Made by a program: the position numbers and the translations under genes. A model generated the notes under the pieces. The model was not told the origin of the DNA. It made no database searches and saw only the letters and a program-made list of their open reading frames with translations. A DNA stretch of 31,844 nt from Bacteroidales bacterium (GTDB lineage: Bacteria; Bacteroidota; Bacteroidia; Bacteroidales; NBLH01), in NCBI GenBank assembly GCA_029933755.1, contig JAOZNO010000001.1, positions 1 through 31,844 on the forward strand, in the 5' to 3' direction. How positions within the stretch are numbered: position 1 is the first letter of the stretch; every line of letters starts with the position of its first letter. Below are positions 890-15,998 of the stretch, in pieces.

Positions 890-1672
890 ATGAAAGTATT
901 TTTAGACGATAGAAAATTAAAGATCCTGGAGCTCATTGCGGGGAAGGAATCTGTTTCGGTTAAGGAGTTAAGCATACTGCTAAAGGTTAGCGAGGCTACC
1001 ATACGGACTGATTTGAGTGTTCTTGAAGAAAGAGGAAAAATTGTTCGATATCATGGTGGTGCACGCCTTATAGAAAATAGGTATAAGCAAGAACTTACCT
1101 ATCAGAATAGAAAGAACCTAAACTTTCAGCAAAAGAAAGAAATCGGGAAGTTTGCAGCAACTTTAATTAAATCTAACGATTCTGTTTTGCTTGATGCTAG
1201 TACAACATCGCTTGCTTTGGCTCAATCTTTAAGAAATAGAGAGGATATAAGAGATGTTACGATTATACCCTTAGGTATTTGGACTGCAATTGAGTTTTTA
1301 GGTTATGATAATTTTAACATTTTGCTTCCGGGTGGCTATCTTAGGCATGCATCTGCCTCTTTGACCGGATTACCGACAAATGATTTTTTTGAAGGGCTTA
1401 TAGTTCAAAAGGCTTTTTTAGGTGCATGGGGAATTTCCGTCGAACAGGGACTAACTGATAGCCATTTGCTAGAAATCGAATTTAAAAAAATGATCTTGAA
1501 AAAAGCAAAAGAAGTTATCGTGATTGTAGATGGGAGCAAGTTTAATCAATCCGGACTTGCCAGCTATGCTTCAATTGATAAAATATCGCAAATAATTACT
1601 GATAAAACAGCTCCGCTTGAAGAAATAGGAAAAATACGCAAACTTGGGGTTAAAGTTATCGTGGCAAGCTAA
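890..1672 (+). CDS. DeoR/GlpR-family transcriptional regulator
   Basis: N-terminal HTH (VSVKELSILLKVSEATIRTDLSVLE, RYHGGA) and C-terminal sugar-phosphate sensor domain (LLDASTT, KAFLG, DGSKF, IITD). Confidence 0.95.
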   Translation: MKVFLDDRKLKILELIAGKESVSVKELSILLKVSEATIRTDLSVLEERGKIVRYHGGARLIENRYKQELTYQNRKNLNFQQKKEIGKFAATLIKSNDSVLLDASTTSLALAQSLRNREDIRDVTIIPLGIWTAIEFLGYDNFNILLPGGYLRHASASLTGLPTNDFFEGLIVQKAFLGAWGISVEQGLTDSHLLEIEFKKMILKKAKEVIVIVDGSKFNQSGLASYASIDKISQIITDKTAPLEEIGKIRKLGVKVIVAS

Positions 1673-1767
1673 TATTTGTCATAAAACAAAATTAGGTGTT
1701 CTATGAAAATTCAAATATCAATGCTAGTTCCGCTATTGCGGAAGCTCTCAAATTTTCAAAGCTCGAT

Positions 1768-1783
1768 TTTACTTTTGTAAATG
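1768..1783 (+). promoter_or_regulatory. Candidate -7 promoter element upstream of pduL
   Basis: TTTACTTTTGTAAATG contains TACTTTTG (TAnnTTTG). The identical 16-mer lies upstream of ackA at 9594-9609. Confidence 0.45.
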
Positions 1784-1881
1784 CGATGTACTAAGCTAGT
1801 TGAAGTAAGTGTTTTGAAAAATTTGTATAACGATGAGATTTGGATATTTAGAGCTTAACTAAGGAGAATAAATTATAAGTT

Positions 1882-2544
1882 ATGATGAATATAGATGAAG
1901 CGGTAATTGATCGTATTGTTGATGAAGTTAAAAAGAATCTTGCTGCTCCGCTTAGTAAAATAAATGGTAATTTAATTCCATTGGGTGTTTCGAACAGGCA
2001 TATACATCTAACACTTCAAACATTCAAAAAACTTTTTGGTGATAATACTGAATTTGAAGTGATGCGTCCTTTATATCAACCCGGCGAATTTGCCTCTAAA
2101 CATGTTGTAACCATTATTGGTGCAAAGCAAAGAAGCATTCAAGGGGTTAGAATACTAGGGCCTTTAAGAAATTATGATCAGGTTGAAGTTTCATTAACCG
2201 ATGCGGTAGTTTTGGGCATTAGCCCTCCGGTTGTTAATTCAGGAACCTTAGATAATGCTTCACCTTTAACTCTTGTTGGACCTAAAGGTTCTGTTTATCT
2301 TAATAAATGTGCAATAGTTGCATCAAGGCATATTCATATGACAAATGCTGATGCCAGAGGATTTGGTGTAAGTGATGGTGATTATTGTAAAGTCCGTATA
2401 GCTGGAGACAAAGGAACTATTTTTGAAAATGTTTTAGTTAGAATTAATGATGACTGGAAGCTTCAAATACATCTTGATACTGACGATGCAAATGCTGCAA
2501 ATGTACGTTCAGAAACTTCTGTTGAATTTGTTGGAAAAATGTAA
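1882..2544 (+). CDS. pduL: PduL-type phosphotransacylase with N-terminal encapsulation peptide
   Basis: Motifs GVSNRHIHL, LYQPGEFA, VRILGP, RHIHM, HLDTDDANAA. N-terminal amphipathic helix IDEAVIDRIVDEVKKNL. Confidence 0.95.
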   Translation: MMNIDEAVIDRIVDEVKKNLAAPLSKINGNLIPLGVSNRHIHLTLQTFKKLFGDNTEFEVMRPLYQPGEFASKHVVTIIGAKQRSIQGVRILGPLRNYDQVEVSLTDAVVLGISPPVVNSGTLDNASPLTLVGPKGSVYLNKCAIVASRHIHMTNADARGFGVSDGDYCKVRIAGDKGTIFENVLVRINDDWKLQIHLDTDDANAANVRSETSVEFVGKM

Positions 2545-2547
2545 ATT

Positions 2548-2835
2548 ATGAAACTCGGACTTGTTATTGGTAAGCTTGTATCAAGTAGAAAAGAAGGCAA
2601 TCTTGATGGTAAAAGAATATTAGTTGTTCGTTATCTTAATGATGAGATGAAAGATACTAAAAAAACGGTAGCTTGTGTTGATACAGTTAATGCTGGTGAG
2701 GGCGAAGTCGTTCTTTTATGTTCTTCATCTTCGGCAAGACTAACAGATACAACTAAAAATGTGGCAGTTGACAATAGTATTATTGGAATTGTAGATTCAA
2801 TTTCTATTGGAAAAGAATATTTATACAAAAAATAA
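2548..2835 (+). CDS. BMC pentamer shell protein (EutN/CcmL family), BMC-P #1
   Basis: VIGKLVSSRK..LDGKRILVV..CVDTVNAGEGEVVLLCSSSSAR..VDNSIIGIVD. Confidence 0.92.
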   Translation: MKLGLVIGKLVSSRKEGNLDGKRILVVRYLNDEMKDTKKTVACVDTVNAGEGEVVLLCSSSSARLTDTTKNVAVDNSIIGIVDSISIGKEYLYKK

Positions 2836-2917
2836 ATTTTAATAGAGTGTGTCCATAATGTCACTATTTGTAGAGCTTTGTGTGTTTGAAACGTATTTTA
2901 AAATGTGAACAAGTTGG

Positions 2918-2979
2918 CAGTAAACAGTCTACAGTACGCAGCAGATCTGCAAAGTCTGCTTACTGAGAACTGAAGACTG
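2918..2979. repeat. Inverted heptamer-periodic REP-like element inside the BMC operon
   Basis: CAGT at 2918, 2925, 2932 and ACTG at 2962, 2969, 2976 (period 7 on both arms), around a GCAGATCTGC palindrome at 2941-2950. Confidence 0.6.
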
Positions 2980-3056
2980 TTCTCGTTTCTAAGAAGAAAA
3001 GAAATTTAAATTAGTAAATGGCTGACTTTATAGACTAAATCTAAATAGAATCATAG

Positions 3057-3353
3057 GTGGAAATATCTTTACAAAAAATAATCGAAATTGTTACCGAAGA
3101 AGTAATAAAGGAGTTAATTAAAAAAGGCATTAAAATAGATGAGTCTTTTATTAGAAAAACTGAAAACAACAATAATAATAAGTCATTTGAGATTGATATG
3201 AGGAGGTTTAAAACGCCTATTGTAACAGAAAACATATTAGGTTCAATTGATAAAAATATTAATAAAATAATTGTTCCGGCTAAAACTATTATTACGCCGG
3301 GGGCAAGGCATATAGTTAAGAAAAATAAACTTACTATAATTTACAAATCTTAA
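3057..3353 (+). CDS. Small BMC-associated protein: encapsulation peptide plus EutQ-N-terminus-like domain
   Basis: GTG start. N-terminal amphipathic LQKIIEIVTEEVIKELIKK, Asn-rich linker, C-terminal IVTENIL..TIITPGARHIVKK resembling the IITPxAR motif of BMC accessory proteins. Confidence 0.7.
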   Translation: MEISLQKIIEIVTEEVIKELIKKGIKIDESFIRKTENNNNNKSFEIDMRRFKTPIVTENILGSIDKNINKIIVPAKTIITPGARHIVKKNKLTIIYKS

Positions 3354-3368
3354 TAAATATATAGAATC

Positions 3369-3650
3369 ATGGTAAAAGGAGTCGCTTTAGGTTTTGTTGA
3401 AACACGGGGTAATACCGGAGCTATTAATGCAATTGATGCAATGCTCAAAACCGCAAATGTTGAATTTTCAAAGAAAGTTGAAATAGGTGGTGCATATATA
3501 ACTGTTATTGTCAGAGGCGAAGTAGGTGCAGTACGATCATCTGTTGAAGCTGGTGCAGAAGCAGCTGCCAAAATTGGTGAGTTGGTTAGTACAAATATTA
3601 TTGCCTCAGCCGATGAGGAAGTTTTTGATTTAATTGGTATAAAAAAATAG
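3369..3650 (+). CDS. BMC hexamer shell protein, BMC-H #1 (divergent C-terminus)
   Basis: ALGFVETRG..IDAMLKTANV..IGGAYITVIVRGEVGAVRSSVEAG. Lacks the usual C-terminal PRP/RP motif. Confidence 0.93.
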   Translation: MVKGVALGFVETRGNTGAINAIDAMLKTANVEFSKKVEIGGAYITVIVRGEVGAVRSSVEAGAEAAAKIGELVSTNIIASADEEVFDLIGIKK

Positions 3651-3659
3651 GAGGAAAAA

Positions 3660-3962
3660 ATGATAGAAGCATTAGGAATTATCGAAACCATTGGGTTCAC
3701 TGCCGCCATTGAAGCAGCAGATGCGGCTGTAAAATCAGCAAATATTAAGCTTGGTAACTGGGTTAAAGTTGGTGGCGGACATGTAAATATTATTATTCGT
3801 GGTGATGTTGCATCAGTAAAGGCTGCCGTTGAGGCTGGTGTTGAAGCTGCATCAAGAATTGGTACTGTACAGTCTCAAGTGGTATTACCTCGTCCATCAG
3901 ATAAGTTGATGCCTAAATTTCAACTTGATCCTATTAAAGCAGTAAAAAAAACAACTAAATAA
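3660..3962 (+). CDS. BMC hexamer shell protein, BMC-H #2
   Basis: ALGIIETIG..AADAAVKSANI..VGGGHV..RGDVASVKAAVEAG..VLPRP. AGGAGG at 3649-3654, 5 nt before the ATG. Confidence 0.95.
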   Translation: MIEALGIIETIGFTAAIEAADAAVKSANIKLGNWVKVGGGHVNIIIRGDVASVKAAVEAGVEAASRIGTVQSQVVLPRPSDKLMPKFQLDPIKAVKKTTK

Positions 3963-3973
3963 TCTGACTCAAT

Positions 3974-5407
3974 ATGAATTTTGATATTAGTGAGACACAA
4001 TTAAACGATATTGTTGAAAATGTTGTAAGGCAAGTTGTATCGCAAACCACTAATTCTGAAAATAGCATTATTGAGTCTGGTAAAGGCGACAATGGTGTTT
4101 TTGAAGACATGAACGATGCAGTAGAAGCTGCTTATGTGGCATTTCAGGAGTATAAGGAAAGAAGTACTCAGTGCAGAAAAGATATTACTGATGCAATTAG
4201 GAAAATGGCAATTGACCACAAAGAAGAACTCTCTCAATTAACTATAGAAGAGACGACTATGGGAAGGCTTGATCATAAAATTGCAAAATACATAAACGCT
4301 TCAGAAAACAGTCCAGGTGTTGAAGATTTACAACCCCGGGCTTGGTCAGGAAAAAATGGTTTGGCTCTTGATGAATATGCACCATTTGGCGTAATAGGTA
4401 ATATTTCTCCTAGTACACATCCAGGACCGGTATTGATTAATAATATTATTATTCAGTTAGCTGGTGGAAATACCATTGCTTTCAATCCGCATCCAAATGC
4501 AAAAAAAATTAGCAATAAAGTTATTCAACTGGCTAATAAATATATGATTGAAGCTGGTGCACCGGCAAATTTGGTTACAAGTATTAAAGAGCCTACTTTA
4601 CAATCGGCTGAAGCTTTATTTAGTCACGAAAAAGTTGCTTTTCTTTCTGTAACAGGAGGTCCGCAAGTTGTTGAAATGGCTCAAAAGTTTCCAAAAAAAC
4701 TTATGGCAGCCGGCCCGGGTAACCCACCTGTCTTGGTTGACGAAACAGCTGATCTTGTTCATGCGGCAAAAGAAATTACGGATAGTGCAAGTTTTGATAA
4801 CAATATTCTTTGTATAGGCGAGAAAGAAATATTTGTCGTTGAATCAGTTTTCGATGCATTTATGAGTGAAATGGAAAAGGTCGGAAATGTTAGGCTTACA
4901 ACCAGCCAAATGGACGAGCTTGGAGAGAAAGCATTGTTTCAGTCAGGTGAACATTGGCTGATAGGAAGAGATCTTGTTGGAAAAAATGCAAAGGTACTGG
5001 CAAATGCAATAGGATTAAATGTATCTGAAAATGCTCCATTATTAATTGGAGAAACGGATAAGAATCATCCATGGGTATTAGCAGAACAAATGACCTGTTG
5101 TATTCCTGTAGTCAAAGTAAAAGATTTTAAAGAAGGAACTCAGGCTGCGATTGAAGCCGAACACGGATTCAGGCACACAGCCAGCGTATTTACCAAAGAT
5201 ATAGACCGTGCTACAAAATATAGCAGGGTGTTGGATTGTACTGTTAATGTTATAAATGGCGGTACTCTTAGGGGAAATGGTGGCGATTTAGGTGAAGGAT
5301 ACTTTTCACACACTATTGCAACCCCAACCGGCGAGGGTATTACTACTCCTCTTGACTTTGTTAGGAAACGACGTATAATGACTCATCCGGCATTACGATT
5401 TATTTAA
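3974..5407 (+). CDS. CoA-acylating aldehyde dehydrogenase (EutE/PduP family) with N-terminal encapsulation peptide
   Basis: PFGVIGNISPSTHP, FNPHPNAK, VTGGPQVV, AAGPGNPPVLVDETAD, catalytic SFDNNILCIGEKE, TIATPTGEG. N-terminal helix ISETQLNDIVENVVRQVVS. Confidence 0.95.
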   Translation: MNFDISETQLNDIVENVVRQVVSQTTNSENSIIESGKGDNGVFEDMNDAVEAAYVAFQEYKERSTQCRKDITDAIRKMAIDHKEELSQLTIEETTMGRLDHKIAKYINASENSPGVEDLQPRAWSGKNGLALDEYAPFGVIGNISPSTHPGPVLINNIIIQLAGGNTIAFNPHPNAKKISNKVIQLANKYMIEAGAPANLVTSIKEPTLQSAEALFSHEKVAFLSVTGGPQVVEMAQKFPKKLMAAGPGNPPVLVDETADLVHAAKEITDSASFDNNILCIGEKEIFVVESVFDAFMSEMEKVGNVRLTTSQMDELGEKALFQSGEHWLIGRDLVGKNAKVLANAIGLNVSENAPLLIGETDKNHPWVLAEQMTCCIPVVKVKDFKEGTQAAIEAEHGFRHTASVFTKDIDRATKYSRVLDCTVNVINGGTLRGNGGDLGEGYFSHTIATPTGEGITTPLDFVRKRRIMTHPALRFI

Positions 5408-5437
5408 AAATTTACAAATATTAAAGGAGAATATAAA

Positions 5438-5710
5438 ATGGCAGCAAGAAACGCAATTGGAATTTTAGAAACAAAAGGATTTGCCTGTTTGGTAATAGGG
5501 GCAGATACAGCTCTTAAATCAGCAAATGTTGAACTTGTAGAGTGGAGACAAGTTGGTAGCGGTTATGTGTCTTTTGTTATTGAAGGCGATGTGGCAGCAG
5601 TTAGGGCTTCTATTGAAGCTGGTGCGGAAGCCGCATCTAAAGTGGGACAAGTATTATCCCAATTAATTATAGCACGTCCTGTAGATGAAATTGACACAAT
5701 ATTTTCATAA
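5438..5710 (+). CDS. BMC hexamer shell protein, BMC-H #3
   Basis: AIGILETKG..GADTALKSANV..VGSGYV..EGDVAAVRASIEAG..IIARP. AAGGAG at 5424-5429. Confidence 0.95.
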   Translation: MAARNAIGILETKGFACLVIGADTALKSANVELVEWRQVGSGYVSFVIEGDVAAVRASIEAGAEAASKVGQVLSQLIIARPVDEIDTIFS

Positions 5711-5721
5711 GCTAATTATTT

Positions 5722-6000
5722 ATGATTTTTGCAAAAGTTATAGGAACAATTGTTTCTACTCAGAAGGATCCTAATCTGAATGGTAAAAAACTATTGCTAT
5801 GCAAGGAAGTGGATCACAGTGGGAAACCCCTGGAAACTTATCATGTGGCCGTAGATGCGGTGCAAGCCGGTGAAGGAAGTTTTGTGCTTCTTTCATATGG
5901 TTCTTCTGCCCGCATGACTGATGAAACAAAAAATGCACCTATTGATGCAGTTGTAATAGCAATAATTGATGATGTTCAGATAACACATCAATTTAAATAA
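5722..6000 (+). CDS. BMC pentamer shell protein, BMC-P #2 (canonical)
   Basis: AKVIGTIVSTQKDPNLNGKKLLL..AVDAVQAGEG..GSSAR..PIDAVVIAIID. Confidence 0.95.
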   Translation: MIFAKVIGTIVSTQKDPNLNGKKLLLCKEVDHSGKPLETYHVAVDAVQAGEGSFVLLSYGSSARMTDETKNAPIDAVVIAIIDDVQITHQFK

Positions 6001-6007
6001 AAGACAG

Positions 6008-6271
6008 ATGAAACTTGGGGTAGTTATTGGTGTAGTTTGGGCTTCACGGAAAGTCGAGGCGCTAGATGCTTGCAGAATGTATATTGTACAACCTGTTTCG
6101 TCTGAAAACAATCCGGTAGAGTCACCTTTGGTGGTTGCTGACCCTAAAGGTTTAGCGGCTTCAGGTGATAAAATTGTTTATGTTACCAGTACAGATGCCG
6201 TAGAGGCTTTTGATAGTGGTTTTGTTCCGGTAAATGCTAGTGTTATTGAACTGGTTGATGTAGTTGTTTAA
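6008..6271 (+). CDS. BMC pentamer shell protein, BMC-P #3 (divergent)
   Basis: MKLGVVIGVVWASRK..YIVQP..VADPKGLAASGDKIVYVTSTDA..PVNASVIELVD. Confidence 0.85.
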   Translation: MKLGVVIGVVWASRKVEALDACRMYIVQPVSSENNPVESPLVVADPKGLAASGDKIVYVTSTDAVEAFDSGFVPVNASVIELVDVVV

Positions 6272-6311
6272 CCTGCACTATTTAAAGAGAATTTATGAAT
6301 TAATCAGGTTA

Positions 6312-6590
6312 ATGTTTTTAGCAAAAATCATAAGAAAAGTAATTTCAACAGAAAAACATGATGCCTATAAAGGCAGAATTGTTTTTGTTGTTCAACCTGT
6401 AAAACCTAATGGTGAAAATATTGGTAATGAATGGGTAGCTGTAGATTATGTTGGTGCCGGAGTTGGCGATACGATTATTTGTGGCGGTGCTCCCGGAGTG
6501 TCAAAAAATATATTTAAACTTGAATTGGCTCCAATAAGGACTTTAATAATAGCGGTAGTTGATAAAATCGACTATAGGGATATAGAATAA
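6312..6590 (+). CDS. BMC pentamer shell protein, BMC-P #4 (divergent)
   Basis: Start moved from the ORF-track 6264 to ATG 6312: MFLAKIIRKVISTEKH..VVQP..AVDYVGAGVGDTII..PIRTLIIAVVD. Confidence 0.87.
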   Translation: MFLAKIIRKVISTEKHDAYKGRIVFVVQPVKPNGENIGNEWVAVDYVGAGVGDTIICGGAPGVSKNIFKLELAPIRTLIIAVVDKIDYRDIE

Positions 6591-6697
6591 TTTTCATGTG
6601 TTTATTTTTGATTATTTTTATTTGCCACATGTTACCGCATGATGTAAAATAATCATTGCCTTGAATGTTTAATAATTATTTTAATCATGCTTGTTTC

Positions 6698-7996
6698 ATG
6701 ACAATAAAAGAAATAGAAAGTTTAGGAATTGTTGGTGCTGGTGGAGCAGGTTTTCCTACGCATGTGAAGCTAAACAGCAAGCCTGATACTATTATTATGA
6801 ATGCAGCGGAATGTGAGCCTCTGCTTCATAAGGATATGGAGCTTATTTTGAACTATACCGATAAAGTTTTGCTTGGTTTGAAAATAGTAATGGAAATTAC
6901 TGGTGCAAAACAAGGTATTATTGGAATAAAAGAGAAGCATCCCCACGAAATAGACTTGTTAAACTCAAAGGTTTCGGGCAATATAAAAGTAATACCTATT
7001 GAAGATATTTATCCTGCCGGAGATGAGGTAACTTTGATTTACATGACCACAAAAAGAGTTGTTCAGCCAGGTGCTCTTCCTATTTCCGTGGGCTGCGTAG
7101 TGCAAAATGTTGAAACATTATTGAATATTGGATTAGGAAAACCCGTTACAGATAAATATGTATCAATTGCAGGTGCGGTTGAAAAGCCGGCAACTGTGAG
7201 AGTTCCGGTTGGAACTACTTATGCTGAGATATTGTCCCACTTTAAAATTACGGTTGATGATTATTCAATTCGTGTAGGTGGGCTAATGATGGGAGCACTT
7301 GAAGCTGATTTGAATTCAGTTGTTGATAAAAAAACTGGGGCATTAATCGTCCTTCCCTCTGATCATCACTGTGTGAATGTTTACAATCGATTTGCCTTAG
7401 AAGAATATACTGATAAAATTGCTAAAGCAGCCTGCGATCAATGTACTTTTTGTACAGAATTATGCCCCAGGTATCTTCTTGGTCAGCCTGTAATGCCTAA
7501 TATTGCAATGAAGAACAGAATGTTTTCCAATTTAGAACAAAAGGTGGTTTTTGCAGGCAATTTTTCTTGCTGCGAGTGTAATTTATGTACTATGTATGCT
7601 TGTCCTGAAGGCCTCGATCCAAGAGGTGCAACAGTTATGGAAAAAAGATGGTCAAGAGAACTGGGATTAAAATGGGATGGAAAAGAAGCAGTTCCGCATC
7701 CTATGAATGATTATCGGAAAGTTCCGACACAAAAACTAATGCAAAGGCTTGATGTATTAATGTTTAAAGATGAAGGGCCTTTAATTGAACTAAATTTATC
7801 TTCAACAGAAGTTCGTATCCCTTTTAACAAACACATTGGAGCCGTTTCGCAACCAATTGTTAATGTTGGGCAAATCGTAAATAAATACGAACTGATAGCC
7901 AGGGCTAATGGTCAGGTTTCAAGCAATATACATTCATCAATAGATGGAATAGTTAAAAACATTTCAGAAACAGAAATATTAATACAAAAAAATTGA
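6698..7996 (+). CDS. pduS: PduS/RnfC-like flavin/Fe-S oxidoreductase
   Basis: GIVGAGGAGFPTHVK, NAAECEPLL, YPAGDE, QNVET, SLBB-like region, two Fe-S motifs (CDQCTFCTELCP; CCECNLCTMYACP), C-terminal sandwich domain (HIGA..HSSIDG). Start probably ATG 6698 rather than 6665. Confidence 0.9.
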   Translation: MTIKEIESLGIVGAGGAGFPTHVKLNSKPDTIIMNAAECEPLLHKDMELILNYTDKVLLGLKIVMEITGAKQGIIGIKEKHPHEIDLLNSKVSGNIKVIPIEDIYPAGDEVTLIYMTTKRVVQPGALPISVGCVVQNVETLLNIGLGKPVTDKYVSIAGAVEKPATVRVPVGTTYAEILSHFKITVDDYSIRVGGLMMGALEADLNSVVDKKTGALIVLPSDHHCVNVYNRFALEEYTDKIAKAACDQCTFCTELCPRYLLGQPVMPNIAMKNRMFSNLEQKVVFAGNFSCCECNLCTMYACPEGLDPRGATVMEKRWSRELGLKWDGKEAVPHPMNDYRKVPTQKLMQRLDVLMFKDEGPLIELNLSSTEVRIPFNKHIGAVSQPIVNVGQIVNKYELIARANGQVSSNIHSSIDGIVKNISETEILIQKN

Positions 7997-8568
7997 TGCT
8001 GACAAGAAACGCAATAGGGATAATAGAGCTTTCCAGTATAACTAAAGGTTATCAGGTACAGGATGCTGTACTGAAATCTTCTAATACAGAAAAGCTAATT
8101 TCCAGATCTATTTGCCCTGGAAAATACTTCATAGTAATTAAAGGCGATGTAGCGGATATAGAAATTGCAATTAGTATAGCAAAGGAAACGGGTGGTTATG
8201 CAATAGTTAATTTAACTTCTATCCCCAATTTGGATCCAAAAGTTTTTCCGGCCATTACAAGTTCTAATGTAATTGAACATGATAAGGATCAGAAAAAAGT
8301 TGGAGCATTGCTAATTATTGAAACTTTTTCAGTTGTTTCGGCAATAAAGGCCGCAGATTTTGCTGCAAAGGAAGCAGAACTTGATATCCGGCATATTCAT
8401 GTAGCAATGGCAATAGGCGGGAAAGGAGTAGTTGTTATTACTGGTGAAATAAGTGCACTGGAAGCGGCAGTTATACCTGCTATTGAATATTGTAAAGAAG
8501 ATGGAATGCTTGCGGACTATACAATTGTACGTAACCCGCACCCAGAAGTTTTAAAAGAGTTAATATAA
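7996..8568 (+). CDS. pduT: PduT-like tandem-domain shell protein (BMC-T) with pore Cys
   Basis: AIGIIELSSITKG, ICPGKY (cluster-binding Cys motif), second domain IETFSVVSAIKAADFAAK..AIGGKG. ATG at 7996 overlaps the pduS stop (TGATG). Confidence 0.9.
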   Translation: MLTRNAIGIIELSSITKGYQVQDAVLKSSNTEKLISRSICPGKYFIVIKGDVADIEIAISIAKETGGYAIVNLTSIPNLDPKVFPAITSSNVIEHDKDQKKVGALLIIETFSVVSAIKAADFAAKEAELDIRHIHVAMAIGGKGVVVITGEISALEAAVIPAIEYCKEDGMLADYTIVRNPHPEVLKELI

Positions 8569-8587
8569 AAATAAAAAGGATAATATT

Positions 8588-9409
8588 ATGGCTACAGAAT
8601 TTGAAATTAAGAAACAGATTGTAGAAATTGGGAAAAGAATTTGGACAAGAGGCTATGTTGCTTCTAATGACGGTAATATGACCGTAAAATTGAACGACAA
8701 GGAGATACTTGCTACACCAACAGGAATTAGCAAAGGGTATATGACTGAGGATATGATAATTAAATGCGACCTTGACGGGAACGTTATTTCCGGGAATCCG
8801 AAATATAAACCATCAAGTGAGGTTAAAATGCACCTTGCCGTGTATAAAGCACGACCTGATATAAAATCAGTAGTACATGCACATCCACCTTATGCTACAA
8901 GTTTTGCTGTTGCAGGAATACCATTGGACAAATGTGTGCTTCCGGAAGCAATTATTGTAATTGGTGCTGTACCTATTGCGCCATATGGCTTACCTTCTAC
9001 TATGGAAATACCTGACAGGATGATGCCTTTTATTAAAGATTCAGATGTGATTTTATTAGAAAATCACGGGGCTTTAACCTTTGGGACTGATTTGTTGAAT
9101 GCATATCATAAAATGGAAACGCTTGAGCATACTGCAAACATTGTTTGGAAATCTATTCAATTAGGGAATGTTAACATTATGCCTTCTAAAGAACGTGACC
9201 GTTTATTAGCCTTAAGAGAAAAATTCAATTTAACAGGAGAAGTAGCAGCTTGTAATACAGCACCTTTGGGACAGGAATCGCAAAATATCATGGCTTTTGG
9301 TCAATATTCAAAAAATCAGAAACAAGAAACAAATGATACAAATACTGTTTCAGAAGATGCTATTAAAGAAATAGTTGGTAAAGTTTTGGATAAACTTAGA
9401 AATAGTTAG
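8588..9409 (+). CDS. Class II (metal) aldolase, FucA/RhaD/AraD family, with C-terminal encapsulation peptide
   Basis: GNMT, TPTGISKG, PSSEVKMH, metal ligands HAH and ENHG. C-terminal helix VSEDAIKEIVGKVLDKLRNS after a polar linker. Confidence 0.93.
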   Translation: MATEFEIKKQIVEIGKRIWTRGYVASNDGNMTVKLNDKEILATPTGISKGYMTEDMIIKCDLDGNVISGNPKYKPSSEVKMHLAVYKARPDIKSVVHAHPPYATSFAVAGIPLDKCVLPEAIIVIGAVPIAPYGLPSTMEIPDRMMPFIKDSDVILLENHGALTFGTDLLNAYHKMETLEHTANIVWKSIQLGNVNIMPSKERDRLLALREKFNLTGEVAACNTAPLGQESQNIMAFGQYSKNQKQETNDTNTVSEDAIKEIVGKVLDKLRNS

Positions 9410-9593
9410 TAAGCACTAAGTGCTATTTAATGTTGCTTACGCACTCGTGCAAAGCTCTTACTATATGCAGGTTGCTTAAATATACAAATAAAAATGTCAC
9501 GGAACTTACTTGCTAATTAGTGCATGAACGGAAACTAAGTGTTTGGATGGGAAATTTTAAGTTCTAGGCTTGTGAAATCTTAAAATTCAAGAG

Positions 9594-9609
9594 TTTACTT
9601 TTGTAAATG
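9594..9609 (+). promoter_or_regulatory. Candidate -7 promoter element upstream of ackA
   Basis: TTTACTTTTGTAAATG, identical to 1768-1783, contains TAnnTTTG. Confidence 0.45.
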
Positions 9610-9674
9610 ATTGTTTTTTAAGATGAGTATAACGAAGAAATTGGAATTTCCGGTCAAACACTAATTACTAAAAT

Positions 9675-10847
9675 ATGAAAATCTTAATTGCAAATCCCGG
9701 GAGTACTTCTTACAAATGTAAGCTTTATGATGCCGATGATATGACTATTCTTTTTGAAGCAACAGTAGAAAGAATCGGTTCTGATGATGGTATTTACTCT
9801 TATAATTTTTTTGGTTCAGAAATAAAGTCTGAAGTGCTTGATATACCAAATTATTATAAGGCGGTAGAGCTTACAGTTGAATCATTAAAAGGAAAATATT
9901 CAGTTGATGAACTTTCTGCAGTAGGTTTTAAAACGGTTCATGCCAAGGGAGTTACAGGTTGTGTTGAGCTTAGTGAAGATGTGCTTAATGCCATGGAGGA
10001 GTATAGGTTTTTGGCACCTGTACACACAGATGTGTATATAACCGCTATTGCTATTTTTAAAGAATTATTACCAACAAAGCCTTTGGTTGGATTATTTGAA
10101 ACTCACTTTCATAAAAACATTCCTGCTGAAGCTTATATGTATGGAATCCCATATGAACTGTATAAGAAACATGGAATAAGAAAATTTGGGTTTCATGGCT
10201 CATCACATAGATATATTGGGCAACAGGCCAAAGAGTTATTTGGTGCTGACAAAGTAATTTCCTGTCACCTTGGCGGAAGCTCATCTGTTTGTGCCATCAA
10301 AGATGGTTGGTCTATTGATACTTCTATGGGGATGAGTCCACAAAGTGGCTTGCTAAATGCAAAGCGGGTAGGGGATTTGGATCCATTTGCACTTTTATTT
10401 TTGATGGAAAAAGAAAAGCTTTCACCCGAAGAAATGGGGAATATTCTTATGTCAAATGGAGGCCTTTACGGTATATCCGGTGTGAAAAGTGGTGATTTTC
10501 GTGATATTGAAGAAAAAATGGCCAAAGGAGATCAGCGCTCCCAGCTTGCTTTCGATACTTTTGCATACTATGTTAAAAGGTATATTGGTGAGTATATAGC
10601 TATTTTAAACGGTGCTGATTGCATTGTCTTTACTGCAGGCGCAGGTCAAAAAAGCCCCTTGCTTCGTAAAACAATACTATCCAATATGGAAAACATAGGT
10701 ATTACGCTTGATGATAAAAAAAATAACTCGAAACTTTCAGAGGGGTTAATTTCAAGTAGTGATTCAAAAATAAAAGTAGCTGTTATACCAACAAATGAAG
10801 AGTATATTGTTGCCTCAGAAGTAAAAAAATATTTAGCTGGGCTCTGA
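9675..10847 (+). CDS. ackA: Acetate/short-chain acyl kinase, divergent active site
   Basis: ANPGSTSYK, ERIG, GFHGSSH, CHLGG, DTSMG, RVGDLDP, PTNEE. Confidence 0.92.
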   Translation: MKILIANPGSTSYKCKLYDADDMTILFEATVERIGSDDGIYSYNFFGSEIKSEVLDIPNYYKAVELTVESLKGKYSVDELSAVGFKTVHAKGVTGCVELSEDVLNAMEEYRFLAPVHTDVYITAIAIFKELLPTKPLVGLFETHFHKNIPAEAYMYGIPYELYKKHGIRKFGFHGSSHRYIGQQAKELFGADKVISCHLGGSSSVCAIKDGWSIDTSMGMSPQSGLLNAKRVGDLDPFALLFLMEKEKLSPEEMGNILMSNGGLYGISGVKSGDFRDIEEKMAKGDQRSQLAFDTFAYYVKRYIGEYIAILNGADCIVFTAGAGQKSPLLRKTILSNMENIGITLDDKKNNSKLSEGLISSSDSKIKVAVIPTNEEYIVASEVKKYLAGL

Positions 10848-11174: not shown

Positions 11175-11180
11175 CTACAG

Positions 11181-11254
11181 TGGGCCCACATGGGTTTGAA
11201 CCATGGACTCCCTGATTATGAGTCAGGTGCTCTAACCAACTGAGCTATGGGCCC
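11181..11254 (-). tRNA. tRNA with CAT anticodon, most likely tRNA-Ile2 (lysidine); elongator Met not excluded
   Basis: GGGCCCA acceptor, D arm GCTCAGTTGGTTAGAGC, anticodon arm CCTGA-CTCATAA-TCAGG, T arm CATGG-TTCAAAC-CCATG, A73, no encoded CCA. TACTTTTG -7 element at 11285-11278. Confidence 0.93.
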
Positions 11255-11418
11255 TGAAATTGAATAATTTCGGATTGCAAAAGTAAATATATTTTTATAA
11301 TATCTAAACTTTTTTGAATATTTATTACCAAATGATGTAATAAAATTAATTCAGTAGTGTATATTCATAAAATTCAGGCTTATTTAGTATCTTCGAAATT
11401 TAATTTTAAATATTGATA

Positions 11419-12054
11419 ATGAGTAAGCTATTGAAAAATATAGATAATATTATTTTTGACCTTGGAGGTGTTATTTTGGAGATAGATTTAGATATGATAA
11501 AAAAAGGTTTTATGAGTTTGGGTTTTAATGATTTAGAGTCTAGTTTTGAGACTTTTAAGCATAACCAAATTTTTGAAAAATTTGAAAGGGGTCAAATTGA
11601 ACCCCAGGTTATGCGCAATGAGATTAGAAAAGCAAGCCCTAATCCGTTTTCTGATAAAGAGTTTGAGAAGGTTTGGAATTCGGTTATCATTAATTACCCT
11701 AAAGAAAATATTCAGTTATTAAAAGATTTACATGGTAAGTATACAACATTTCTGCTAAGCAATACGAATGAAATACATTATGATTTTTATACAAAAATGC
11801 TTAGTCAGGAGTTTGGTATAGAGAAACTTGATTTACTATTTAATAAAGCCTATTACTCGCATACTTCAGGAATGAGAAAACCTAATCCTAAATTTTTTGA
11901 ACTTGTACTCAATGAAAACAGTTTAAAACCCGAAAACACACTGTTTATTGATGATTTTGAAGAAAATATTGAGGCAGCGAAATTATTAGGTATAAAAACA
12001 ATTCACCTAACAGGTTTTAATCTTGCTGATACTTTAGGAACTGTAAACAAATAA
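11419..12054 (+). CDS. HAD-family phosphatase (YihX-like)
   Basis: IIFDLGGV motif I, LLSNTN, GMRKP, FIDD. ATG 11419 preferred over TTG 11413. Confidence 0.9.
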   Translation: MSKLLKNIDNIIFDLGGVILEIDLDMIKKGFMSLGFNDLESSFETFKHNQIFEKFERGQIEPQVMRNEIRKASPNPFSDKEFEKVWNSVIINYPKENIQLLKDLHGKYTTFLLSNTNEIHYDFYTKMLSQEFGIEKLDLLFNKAYYSHTSGMRKPNPKFFELVLNENSLKPENTLFIDDFEENIEAAKLLGIKTIHLTGFNLADTLGTVNK

Positions 12055-12113: not shown

Positions 12114-13163
12114 CTATTTTAATTGATCTTTTGTTAATTCTTTATATTCCTGTCTGTTATTGTATATGTCAAGGGCAAGATACATTGCCTGTCTAAATGA
12201 TTCTGCACTAGCTTTATTCTTGCCTGCTAAATCATAAGCTGTACCATGTGCCGGCGATGTACGAACTACAGGCAGGCCCGCAGTAAAGTTTACACCCTTA
12301 GAAAAAACCAATGATTTAAAGGGAGCCAAGCCCTGATCGTGATACATTGCCAAAATTGCATCAAATTTAGAATAATCATCAGAGCCAAATAGGCCATCTG
12401 CCGGATATGGGCCTAAAGCCATAATATTCTCATTTCTTGCCTCTTCTATTGCAGGGATAATAATTTCCAGCTCTTCTGTCCCTATCAGTCCTTGATCGCC
12501 TGCGTGTGGATTAAGTCCAAGCACAGCAATTTTAGGATTTGTTATAGCGAAATCTTCAATTAATGATTTGTTTAAAAGACGTAATTTTTTAAGTATTTCT
12601 TTTTTTGTAATTGCTTCTGCAACATCCTTTAATGGTATGTGCCCTGTAACTACACCAACCTTAATGTTATCACTAACCATAAGCATAAGAACATTATTTA
12701 CTTCAAACTTGCTTTTTAGATATTCTGTATGCCCGGGAAAATCAAATCCTTTAATTTGAATATTTTTTTTATTAATTGGTCCTGTTACCAAAATATCAAT
12801 CTCACCTGCTTTAATGTCCTCCACTACTTTTTCAAGAGACATAAACGATGCTTCTCCTGCCATTTGTGTTGATTTTCCTAATTCAACACGAATATTATCA
12901 TCAAGACAGTTAATAATATTAGCCCTTTTATGATTTGCTTCAGAAGGGACTCTTATATTATTCATACTAAAATTAGTGATATTTATAGCTTTACGGTGAT
13001 AAGCAACAATTTTAGATGAGCCATATAATATTGGGGTAAATAAATCAAAAATACGGGTGTCAGTAAGTGATTTAATAATTACCTCGTAACTAATTCCATT
13101 AATATCTCCCTGACTAATTCCTAATTTTAACCTTTTACTAGTCTTTTTTTGCTTTAAATCCAT
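12114..13163 (-). CDS. pdxA: 4-hydroxythreonine-4-phosphate dehydrogenase
   Basis: GDINGISYE, VTGPINK, FPGHTE, TGHIPL, GLNPHAGD, GPYPADG, AMYHDQG, VRTSPAHGTAYD. Confidence 0.96.
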   Translation of the reverse strand: MDLKQKKTSKRLKLGISQGDINGISYEVIIKSLTDTRIFDLFTPILYGSSKIVAYHRKAINITNFSMNNIRVPSEANHKRANIINCLDDNIRVELGKSTQMAGEASFMSLEKVVEDIKAGEIDILVTGPINKKNIQIKGFDFPGHTEYLKSKFEVNNVLMLMVSDNIKVGVVTGHIPLKDVAEAITKKEILKKLRLLNKSLIEDFAITNPKIAVLGLNPHAGDQGLIGTEELEIIIPAIEEARNENIMALGPYPADGLFGSDDYSKFDAILAMYHDQGLAPFKSLVFSKGVNFTAGLPVVRTSPAHGTAYDLAGKNKASAESFRQAMYLALDIYNNRQEYKELTKDQLK

Positions 13164-14876: not shown

Positions 14877-15998
14877 ATGAACTATAACTATATATTTAAA
14901 AAAGCACTTGATTTTAACTTTTTAAGCATTGATGAGGGGATGTATTTGTACGAAAAAGTACCTGTACCTGATTTAATGTGGCTAGCTAATGAAGTTAAGA
15001 AAAAAATTCATGGTGAAAACAGCAATAAGGTAGGTTGGATTATTGACAGAAATGTTAATATCACGAATGTATGTATTGCGCAATGTAAATTTTGCAATTT
15101 TTATCGTCGGCCTGGTGCCCCGGATACGTATATAACAAGTACAGAAGAGTATAAAGAGAAAATTGAGGTGTTACGTAAATTTAACGGAAATCAATTGTTA
15201 TTGCAAGGGGGCTTACATCCTAAATTAGGATTAGAATTTTATTCAAAATTATTTAGTGATTTAAAATCATCATATCCTGATTTAAAGCTACATGCTTTAG
15301 GCCCGGCAGAAATAGCTCATATAGCACGTATTGAAAAGCAGTCATATAAGTTTATACTTGAAAAATTGATTGAGGCCGGACTTGATAGTCTTCCTGGTGC
15401 CGGAGCTGAAATTTTGGTTGACCGTGTGCGAAAAACGGTTTCAAAAGGAAAATGTAGTGCAGATCAATGGCTTGATGTAATGCGTGAAGCACATAAACTG
15501 AATATGATTACATCTGCAACTATGATGCTGGGGCATATTGAAACCAAAAGAGAAAGAATGGAACACCTCGTGAAAATCAGGCAGGTTCAGTCTGAAAAAC
15601 CAGAAAATTCTCCTGGATTTATTTCTTTTATTCCATGGCCATTTATGGATGAAGGAACACAGTTAAATGTAGAAGATGGTGTGGTTAATAATGTAAAATC
15701 TGAAGAATATATCAGAACCATCGCAATAAGCAGAATTATGTTACCAAATGTAAAAAATATACAGGCTTCGTGGTTAACAGTTGGTGAAGAAACTGGTAAA
15801 ATATGCCTGCATGCGGGTGCTAATGATTTTGGATCAATTATGATTGAAGAAAATGTTGTTTCTGTAGCTGGTGCGACACAAGAGTTTGATGCTGAGGGAA
15901 TTCAAAAAGCAATTATTGATGCTGGATTTACACCTTTTCTACGTGATCAAACCTATCATCCTGCGGTTAATGCAGACAAAGTGCTTATTAGGGCTTAA
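14877..15998 (+). CDS. mqnC: Radical SAM cyclic dehypoxanthine futalosine synthase (CofH/MqnC family)
   Basis: RNVNITNVCIAQCKFCNF (CX3CX2C), LLQGG, SLPGAGAEIL, ATMMLGHIE, NIQASW, GANDFGSIMIEENV. Confidence 0.85.
   Translation: MNYNYIFKKALDFNFLSIDEGMYLYEKVPVPDLMWLANEVKKKIHGENSNKVGWIIDRNVNITNVCIAQCKFCNFYRRPGAPDTYITSTEEYKEKIEVLRKFNGNQLLLQGGLHPKLGLEFYSKLFSDLKSSYPDLKLHALGPAEIAHIARIEKQSYKFILEKLIEAGLDSLPGAGAEILVDRVRKTVSKGKCSADQWLDVMREAHKLNMITSATMMLGHIETKRERMEHLVKIRQVQSEKPENSPGFISFIPWPFMDEGTQLNVEDGVVNNVKSEEYIRTIAISRIMLPNVKNIQASWLTVGEETGKICLHAGANDFGSIMIEENVVSVAGATQEFDAEGIQKAIIDAGFTPFLRDQTYHPAVNADKVLIRA

Follow-up and report, generated by a model that had tools for sequence, protein, structure and literature searches.

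Introduction

The catalogued type of bacterial microcompartment (BMC) closest to the locus described here is MIC4 ("metabolosome with incomplete core 4"), which Sutter et al. (2021, Nat Commun 12:3809, Supplementary Data 2) listed with 15 loci. MIC4 is defined by an aldehyde dehydrogenase (AldDh) with an N-terminal peptide, a phosphotransacylase (PTAC), a pfam00596 aldolase and a pfam00871 acetate kinase; "incomplete core" refers to the absence of an alcohol dehydrogenase (AlcDh). The shell genes comprise a BMC-P triplet, sometimes with an extra BMC-P, and either one standard BMC-H or two mostly standard BMC-H together with one that has unusual interface residues. A PduS homologue lies beside a PduT-type BMC-T with a conserved pore cysteine. 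The hosts include Bacteroidetes and Ignavibacteria, and the shell genes of Melioribacter roseus, whose locus (MROS_0101/0104) was called "PVM-like" by Axen et al. (2014), are labelled MIC4 in the catalogue trees. The catalogue's AldDh tree places the MIC4 enzyme beside those of MUF2/MUF3. The catalogue assigned no function to MIC4 and filed it with the incomplete-core types that lack an obvious aldehyde-generating signature enzyme; a companion survey noted that the class II aldolase may imply a PVM-like role. Here we analyze a 15-gene locus at positions 890-10847 of a 31,844-nucleotide stretch of DNA from an uncultured Bacteroidales bacterium (GenBank assembly GCA_029933755.1, contig JAOZNO010000001.1). 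This locus is probably a complete, intact member of the MIC4 class that burns lactaldehyde derived from fucose or rhamnose.

Two other described systems are relevant. The PVM BMC of Planctopirus limnophila (Erbilgin et al., 2014) has a signature class II aldolase, the AldDH, PTAC and acetate-kinase chemistry, a DeoR regulator and a BMC-P triplet, and is predicted to use fucose and rhamnose, with lactaldehyde as the toxic intermediate. PVM loci are confined to Planctomycetes and Verrucomicrobia, contain two BMC-H, three BMC-P and no BMC-T in the main locus, and recycle NAD+ by a lactate/malate-dehydrogenase-like enzyme; PduS/PduT, when present, are mostly in satellite loci. The pairing of PduS and PduT homologues, named MNdh and BMC-TSE, was studied by Sutter et al. 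(2024, PNAS; PMC11626177), who described an NAD+-recycling electron-export module in which the pair oxidizes NADH and passes electrons through the shell. The biochemistry was performed on the Clostridium botulinum GRM1 pair, and 361 loci were counted that have the pair and no alcohol dehydrogenase.

Gene content and type assignment

The window, meaning the whole stretch analyzed, is an entire 31.8-kb contig (C1048) of a fragmented metagenome-assembled genome (MAG) of 5.1 Mb in 1089 contigs that is 87% complete. An earlier note on this DNA, made from the letters alone, had reported 15 co-oriented genes at 890-10847. All 15 lie on the + strand, intact and without internal stops, and Pfam and NCBIfam scans bore out every gene that the note had named. 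The locus consists of three BMC-H, one BMC-T and four BMC-P genes, five enzymes, one regulator and one open reading frame (ORF) without a family. There is no second BMC locus in the MAG: searches with PF00936 and, by tblastn, with every shell protein matched this contig only.

The enzymes that define MIC4 (PF00171/NF011927, PF06130, PF00596 and PF00871) are all present and co-oriented, and there is no alcohol dehydrogenase. The CoA-acylating AldDH, of the PduP/EutE class (3974-5407, +), scores 549 bits against NF011927 (PRK15398; cut-off 403), has its catalytic Cys in ..ILCIGEKE.. and is nearest, among solved structures, to 4C3S and 5JFL. Judged from sequence pattern, it carries the N-terminal encapsulation peptide: an amphipathic helix at residues ~8-22, conserved in orthologues, is followed by a linker, and the Pfam domain begins at residue 44. 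The PduL-type phosphotransacylase (1882-2544, +; PF06130 227 bits; NF011652 231 bits, cut-off 209) has a similar amphipathic helix at residues ~4-20, visible in the sequence and in orthologues. The class II (FucA-like) aldolase (8588-9409, +; PF00596 168 bits) and the AckA-family acyl kinase (9675-10847, +; PF00871 334 bits; TIGR00016 343 bits) complete the set.

The shell genes agree with MIC4 equally well. Three tandem PF03319 genes at 5722-6590 form the BMC-P triplet (5722-6000, 6008-6271 and 6312-6590, all +; 104, 61 and 68 bits; orthologues of 93, 87 and 93 aa), and an additional pentamer gene, BMC-P 1 (2548-2835, +; PF03319 84 bits), lies outside it, at the same position as in related loci. 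BMC-H 2 (3660-3962, +; KSAN/PRPS, within LPRPS) and BMC-H 3 (5438-5710, +; KSAN/ARPV, within IARPV), each scoring 93 bits against PF00936, are near-standard. BMC-H 1 (3369-3650, +; PF00936 80.6 bits) is the atypical one, with the unusual edge residues ..IIASAD.. (ASAD) replacing the RP motif, (P/A)RPH. PduS/MNdh (6698-7996, +), with an FMN-NADH domain, two 4Fe-4S motifs and a C-terminal RnfC_N barrel (PF01512, PF13534, PF13375), is directly adjacent to the PduT-type BMC-T (BMC-TSE; 7996-8568, +), a tandem-domain protein with two PF00936 domains and the pore motif SICPGK. The first gene of the locus encodes a DeoR-family regulator (890-1672, +) with PF08220 HTH_DeoR and the PF00455 DeoRC sugar-phosphate sensor domain. 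It is kept in this position in 27 related loci and does not reach the cut-off of any NCBIfam equivalog, including FucR.

Three starts differ from those of the ORFs. Homology places the starts of PduS at 6698 (ORF opens 6665), as judged from the sister-species locus (L006) and the sequence, and of BMC-P4 at 6312 (ORF opens 6264). PduT starts at ATG 7996 (ORF opens 7993), overlapping the pduS stop.

The remaining gene, a 98-aa ORF (3057-3353, +), has no Pfam match but has 26 orthologues at the same position. The protein has an N-terminal encapsulation-peptide-like helix, conserved in orthologues as are those of PduL and AldDH, then a variable linker; its small C-terminal domain is alpha/beta and has an invariant K-T-P ... 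P..T..T..A pattern. Searches of Pfam with 20 orthologues and of the PDB by profile and by fold returned nothing meaningful, and there is a weak match to TIGR02536. An AF2 model (predicted local distance difference test, pLDDT, 81) has a small alpha/beta fold, and its weak AFDB fold matches, an "Ethanolamine utilization protein" and a PduM family protein, appear limited to other BMC-associated small proteins. As a tagged protein, it would be a conserved component of the lumen.

We obtained relatives by an aldolase scan of species-representative genomes, which gave at least 587, and fetched 80 related loci for comparison. Among these, 18 other species genomes have all 15 genes in identical order (15/15), with 55-90% protein identity. 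The M. roseus MAG (L017), from a species named as a MIC4 exemplar, and Melioribacter isolates (L018, L023) match the window in gene order save for PduS/PduT, at 62-77% identity. The order without PduS/PduT is also that of the Rosettibacter isolates, so the main loci of both genera differ from the window in this respect. Our copy departs from typical MIC4 in its host, which belongs to a Bacteroidales genus with the locus in just 2 of 12 species. It also has insertions resembling miniature inverted-repeat transposable elements (MITEs) in three spacers, and it has lost the physical linkage that most relatives retain to downstream kinase, isomerase and Lut genes.

These comparisons make the locus a new member rather than a new kind, since its gene set matches MIC4 and the role of PduS/PduT has been published. 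The earlier note had suggested that four pentamers, PduS/PduT and the lack of a dehydrogenase might mark an uncharacterised subtype. The analysis does not support that idea: these are listed features of MIC4, and PduS/PduT without an alcohol dehydrogenase has been explained, and tested biochemically on a homologous pair (PMC11626177). The note had also cautioned that similar PVM-like and ACI loci were already catalogued. The type is a catalogued one, MIC4; the locus is not PVM, PVM-like (2021) or ACI.

We rejected PVM membership because the host belongs to the Bacteroidales and the locus has three BMC-H, four BMC-P, a BMC-T and no dehydrogenase. Gene order also differs between the two, although they share the aldolase and downstream chemistry, the DeoR regulator, the BMC-P triplet and the predicted substrates and intermediate. 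The Firmicutes loci classed as MUF3 or PVM-like (2021) resemble the window in having aldolase, AldDH, PduL, (AckA), PduS/PduT and DeoR, and their aldolases have C-terminal peptides, but protein identity is 35-50% and gene order is different (L067, L070-L072, L078-L083). PVM-like, defined in 2021 by AldDh, PTAC and BMC-P nearest those of GRM5, with GRM5-related components and Firmicutes hosts, was rejected, as the AldDH of the Firmicute loci (L067, L078-L083) is only 37-39% identical and the order differs. MUF3, which has a single BMC-P, was rejected on its defining features. ACI is defined as restricted to Acidobacteria, with a hydroxyacid dehydrogenase in the locus and AldDh on a satellite locus; here AldDH is in the main locus, no pfam00389/02826 gene is present and the host is not an acidobacterium.

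As the MIC4 type was catalogued in 2021 and the cofactor-recycling role of PduS/PduT described in 2024, the locus is of value as supporting material. The comparison of the 80 loci adds a concrete, testable substrate for MIC4, fucose or rhamnose converted through lactaldehyde and lactate to pyruvate via LutABC, and draws attention to two conserved components that have yet to be studied, the tagged 98-aa protein and a divergent subfamily of AckA. As cultured carriers exist (Melioribacter and Rosettibacter isolates), the substrate prediction can be tested directly.

Genomic context of the proposed substrate

The earlier note had proposed that a ketose-1-phosphate is cleaved to dihydroxyacetone phosphate (DHAP) plus an aldehyde, which is converted through acyl-CoA and acyl-phosphate to an acid and ATP. 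This is still the best reading, and genomic context now specifies it as fuculose- or rhamnulose-1-phosphate and lactaldehyde. When we clustered all flanking ORFs of the 80 related loci, the recurrent neighbors were a rhamnulokinase-like FGGY kinase (37 loci), LutB (20), LutC (15), FucI (12), RhaA (11), a fucosidase of glycoside hydrolase family 29 (GH29; 6) and a major facilitator superfamily (MFS) permease (6).

The aldolase itself consists of a catalytic domain (residues 1-~225), a variable linker and a conserved C-terminal amphipathic encapsulation peptide (..EDAIKEIVGKVLDKLRN). Paralogues that are ~65-75% identical in the catalytic domain and have no C-terminal peptide occur in plain Aldo-FGGY-FucI-MFS-GH29 clusters (L033, L052, L062), with no shell genes within 10 kb. 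These form a natural control that ties the enzyme to fuculose-1-phosphate and the tail to encapsulation. Six other loci (L010, L036, L039, L041, L046, L055) combine a peptide-tagged aldolase, often with AckA, and sugar genes, and have no shell genes within ~10 kb; there, the aldolase module forms a satellite to a shell locus at another place in the genome.

In the host, a fucose cluster on contig C131 contains AraC, FucK, FucI, FucU, an aldo-keto reductase, a zinc-dependent alcohol dehydrogenase and FucP, and has no aldolase. A rhamnose cluster on contig C785 contains AraC, RhaT, RhaA, RhaB, a 428-aa double class II aldolase, LutA, LutB and LutC. The sister species has its BMC locus convergent, tail to tail, with this LutC-LutB cluster. 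Taken together, the flanking fucose, rhamnose and Lut genes, the peptide-less paralogues and the aldolase-less host fucose cluster make the route from fuculose- or rhamnulose-1-phosphate through lactaldehyde and lactate to pyruvate the best reading. The aldolase of the rhamnose cluster is a tandem two-domain protein (C785 10082-11368, between rhamnulokinase and LutABC), and similar aldolase-like genes follow LutB in L012 and L030.

From the observed gene identities, tags, motifs and linkages we infer the substrates as follows. In the cytosol, FucI/FucK and RhaA/RhaB, predicted from genes on other host contigs, would isomerize and phosphorylate L-fucose and/or L-rhamnose. The ketose-1-phosphate would enter the shell, where the peptide-tagged aldolase, to judge from its context, would yield DHAP and L-lactaldehyde. 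The N-terminally tagged AldDH would convert lactaldehyde to lactyl-CoA and NADH, tagged PduL would form lactyl-phosphate and recycle CoA, and the untagged, specialized AckA-like kinase would produce L-lactate and ATP. LutABC would then oxidize lactate to pyruvate. In a locus with no alcohol dehydrogenase, PduS would re-oxidize the lumenal NADH, and, by homology to the C. botulinum pair, electrons would leave via the 4Fe-4S cluster of the PduT pore to an acceptor outside. The DeoR regulator probably senses a sugar phosphate.

A bolder proposal, which we regard as speculative and somewhat doubtful, is that MIC4 represents a distinct "all-oxidative" form of deoxy-sugar catabolism. In the absence of an alcohol branch, all lactaldehyde would pass via lactyl-CoA to lactate and ATP, the last step being made by a dedicated R91K/D148E/N211G lactyl-phosphate kinase, and PduS/PduT would drain the lumenal NADH by handing its electrons to an acceptor of respiration or fermentation. 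The operon would move between Fibrobacterota-Chlorobiota-Bacteroidota (FCB) lineages as a self-sufficient cassette, here into a vent or sediment Bacteroidales. If this were true, the 98-aa protein would be a previously unrecognized core-organizing component.

The kinase and the PduS/PduT pair

Aligned with acetate kinase 1TUU (M. thermophila numbering), the kinase has the substitutions R91K, L122V, D148E and N211G, and GIGEN is replaced by GAGQK. The housekeeping AckA of the host (contig C32) is canonical, and no encapsulation peptide is seen on the BMC-linked enzyme. Some 40 of the 46 BMC-linked orthologues share the substitutions, with the motif variant GAGQ(N/K), and because of this conservation we favor a subfamily over decay. 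The kinase thus looks like a distinct BMC-linked AckA subfamily with altered acyl specificity, plausibly for lactyl-phosphate.

PduS and PduT resemble the MNdh/BMC-TSE module (PMC11626177) in that a PduS homologue lies directly beside a PduT homologue that bears the cluster motif CP(G/S)K. Like the loci described there, ours has AldDh, no use of B12 and no AlcDh, whereas the pair tested there was from C. botulinum GRM1, not MIC4. The pduS and pduT genes overlap by one base (TGATG) and are translationally coupled, and the pore motif (S/T)IC(P/S)GK of PduT is kept in 34 of 34 orthologues. A predicted co-fold of the two proteins gave an ipSAE (interaction prediction score from aligned errors) of 0.44, compared to 0.00 for the best control, with an interface between the PduT pore motif and the Fe-S region of PduS. 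This score was reached by 55 of 80 solved complexes and 3 of 110 mismatches, and passing scores at or below 0.60 count as weak, so the model lends weak backing to the pairing. Separately, the housekeeping flank contains an MqnC/CofH-type radical S-adenosylmethionine gene (14877-15998), for menaquinone synthesis by the futalosine route and conserved in congeners, which is relevant to the identity of the quinone that could be the final acceptor of electrons leaving through PduS/PduT.

Host, residency and transfer

The MAG represents an uncultured Bacteroidales from hydrothermal-vent or sediment metagenomes, and its probable source run is a hydrothermal-vent metagenome. The named best matches of its RpoB fragment (contig C812) are all "Bacteroidales bacterium", at 82-88% identity, and the locus contig itself encodes a CotH protein with a type IX secretion system (T9SS) tail. 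Together with the genes confirmed by Pfam and NCBIfam, the RpoB result, a marker-gene check that the earlier note had asked for, upholds its view that a complete aldolase-signature metabolosome lies in a genuine Bacteroidota (Bacteroidales) genome. An Ignavibacteria host, suggested by the names of the aldolase matches, was rejected on the basis of RpoB and of the genus and order sampling given below.

Four observations indicate that the locus resides in this genome. The operon spacers contain two MITE families that also occur on 45-61 further contigs of this genome. In the sister species (G010), the divergence of the locus proteins (81-85%) is about equal to that of housekeeping neighbors (81-92%), which also suggests purifying selection. 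A repeat inserted in the sister-genome copy matches at least 20 contigs of this MAG, and depth in the probable source run is ~10x over the locus and ~9x over the flank. The non-Bacteroidota host or chimeric contig that the note had named as grounds for abandoning its proposal was not borne out by RpoB, the shared MITEs, the sister-species locus or the even depth.

The note's remark that BMCs are uncommon in Bacteroidota agrees with our sampling by genus, order and phylum, in which this type is rare in Bacteroidia. Beyond the two species of the host genus, an AldDH more than 45% identical was found in 0 of 300 other genomes of the order, and an orthologue in 4 of 400 sampled genomes of the phylum, all four outside the class of the host. 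In a concatenated four-protein tree, the window and the sister locus fall in a clade of five Bacteroidia-labelled MAGs (100% Shimodaira-Hasegawa-like approximate likelihood ratio test, SH-aLRT) among Ignavibacteria loci; the loci of Kryptoniota, KSB1 and Firmicutes lie outside this grouping. Those nearest to the window come from MAGs likewise labelled Bacteroidia, namely Bacteroidales Bin_72 and a Saprospiraceae MAG that has a 7.2-Mb contig. This distribution and the tree suggest that the locus was probably acquired horizontally from an Ignavibacteria-centered pool of such loci. The locus shows the MIC4 cassette beyond its usual Ignavibacteria hosts, in a Bacteroidales lineage.

Alternative explanations

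Several results weigh against the reading of the locus as a fucose/rhamnose MIC4 BMC. The literature searched holds no experiment on any MIC4 locus. Although the Zn ligands and catalytic Glu of the aldolase (E78, H97, H99, H160) are invariant, the protein is below the cut-off of every NCBIfam equivalog, scoring 120-125 bits against FucA models (cut-offs 250-264) and 75 bits against RhaD (cut-off 170), so curated equivalog membership assigns it neither function, and it is genomic context that carries the substrate assignment. Its top NCBIfam matches are divided among OtnC-like decarboxylase, FucA and ribulose-5-phosphate epimerase models, the best being 3-oxo-tetronate-4-phosphate decarboxylase at 130 bits (cut-off 250). 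The nearest solved structures, at only ~30% identity, are FucA enzymes and uncharacterised "aldolases" (6VOQ, 6VOP); 6BTD is also among them. No fucose or rhamnose gene, nor any other sugar gene, adjoins the locus in the window, where linkage is drawn from other contigs and relatives, and two further class II aldolases of the host, the 428-aa protein inside the rhamnose cluster and a 218-aa protein (C13), could serve a cytosolic route. An organelle of the same type might therefore cleave another ketose phosphate, such as 5-deoxy- or 5-methylthio-ribulose-1-phosphate (DHAP shunt), ribulose- or xylulose-1-phosphate, which would give glycolaldehyde, or a tetronate-type substrate, so that the aldehyde would be acetaldehyde or glycolaldehyde rather than lactaldehyde. 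We consider this distinctly unlikely. Across the 80 related loci the recurrent neighbors are fucose, rhamnose and lactate genes only, and MtnK/MtnA-like, tetronate or pentulose genes do not recur. Moreover, the peptide-less paralogues sit in unambiguous fucose clusters, the host fucose cluster is without any other aldolase, and the linkage to LutBC fits lactate as the end product.

The assignment of a fucose/rhamnose BMC to this host also has to contend with the possibility that the locus is foreign to the genome, either on a mis-binned contig or as an Ignavibacteria-type fragment chimerically joined in the repeat/tRNA region at 10.9-11.7 kb. Ignavibacteria are the typical hosts of this type, which few Bacteroidia carry; ackA is separated from the flank by short repeats and a tRNA; and no independent contig bridges 11086-11668, where Logan contigs break at the repeats and the tRNA, which leaves the join between ackA and tRNA-Met/HAD unverified. 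In addition, the sister-species copy lies elsewhere, beside LutC-LutB, and the contig with the HAD gene and tRNA of that species stops exactly at the tRNA. The shared MITE families, the sister-species locus with its housekeeping-like divergence and its repeat, the even depth and the Bacteroidia labels of the nearest loci nevertheless make a foreign origin hardly credible, and a wrong join at ~11 kb would still leave the locus in this genome. As to how a resident locus arrived, the branches that nest the Bacteroidia clade in Ignavibacteria have only 87-88% SH-aLRT support and the labels of many MAGs are coarse, which leaves the direction of transfer unproven. Nor does a recent arrival that is now decaying or silenced, with three spacer repeats disrupting co-transcription and no functional organelle, account well for the data. 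It would explain the MITE-like insertions (2846-3046, 6592-6693, 9514-9667), the further one between pduT and the aldolase gene in the sister genome, and the terminator-like hairpin right behind the aldolase gene (9412-9424). It would also accommodate the kinase, in which D148E and R91K affect residues held to be catalytic in acetate kinase, so that kinase activity is not certain. However, all 15 frames are intact and the insertions strictly intergenic, the kinase substitutions are shared with ~40 orthologues and the divergence from the sister species is like that of housekeeping genes, and we judge a decaying passenger very improbable.

Spacers, promoters and the downstream border

The MITE-like interspersed repeat in the spacer between BMC-P 1 and the 98-aa ORF (2846-3046) has 65 other matches of at least 100 bp on 61 contigs of the MAG; the same spacer is 2 bp in Melioribacter loci. 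The piece of ~100 bp inserted between BMC-P4 and pduS (6592-6693) has no aligned counterpart in the sister genome; it is missing from one contig assembled from an independent run and coincides with a spike in depth. Between the aldolase gene and ackA lies a 154-bp MITE (9514-9667) with 21-nt terminal inverted repeats (9514-9534 and 9647-9667) and 46 other matches of at least 100 bp on 45 contigs, up to 95% identical. The insertion in the sister genome, at L006 8721-8884, is a different one.

The earlier note had described Bacteroidota-type promoters. This was not sustained, as the 62 copies of TAnnTTTG in the window do not differ significantly from the 54.6 +/- 7 expected, and a sigma-70 scan was at chance level. 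Copies do stand at plausible places before deoR (856-863), pduL (1770-1777) and ackA (9596-9603). The last is inside the 154-bp MITE, which may therefore supply the ackA promoter. Directly after the aldolase stop, a 75-bp stretch that contains the terminator-like hairpin (9406-9480) is 89% identical to a site in congener G006 (L090 16454-16528), which is without a BMC locus. The stretch probably represents one more small element, either mobile or a terminator.

The downstream border is marked by a tRNA-Met (11180-11254, -; ARAGORN and Rfam), 333 bp after ackA, between the BMC locus and a flank of haloacid dehalogenase (HAD) hydrolase, PdxA, M17 and MqnC genes. Rfam returned two tRNAs only in the window. 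The HAD, PdxA, M17 and neighboring genes form a conserved housekeeping flank, syntenic in congeners that lack the BMC locus there. The corresponding contig of the sister species ends exactly at tRNA-Met, and in G006 (59% complete) PdxA and tRNA-Met are followed by other genes. We rejected the HAD hydrolase (11413-12054) as a member of the locus, since in the sister genome it stays with PdxA and M17, and none of the related BMC loci contains it. PdxA (12114-13163) was considered as a tetronate partner of an OtnC-like "aldolase" and rejected; it is encoded on the other strand, and congeners without the BMC keep it in synteny with M17 and MqnC.

On the upstream side, the contig begins 890 bp before deoR, and the sister-species locus is in another neighborhood. 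There, upstream of deoR (L006 768-1076), we found a second copy of the LutB/LutC junction, ~310 bp long and 67% identical to C785 13372-13682, in addition to the full LutB/LutC copy downstream of ackA. In L008, LutB-LutC lies directly upstream of deoR. The duplicated junction may be a trace of cassette insertion or rearrangement beside Lut genes.

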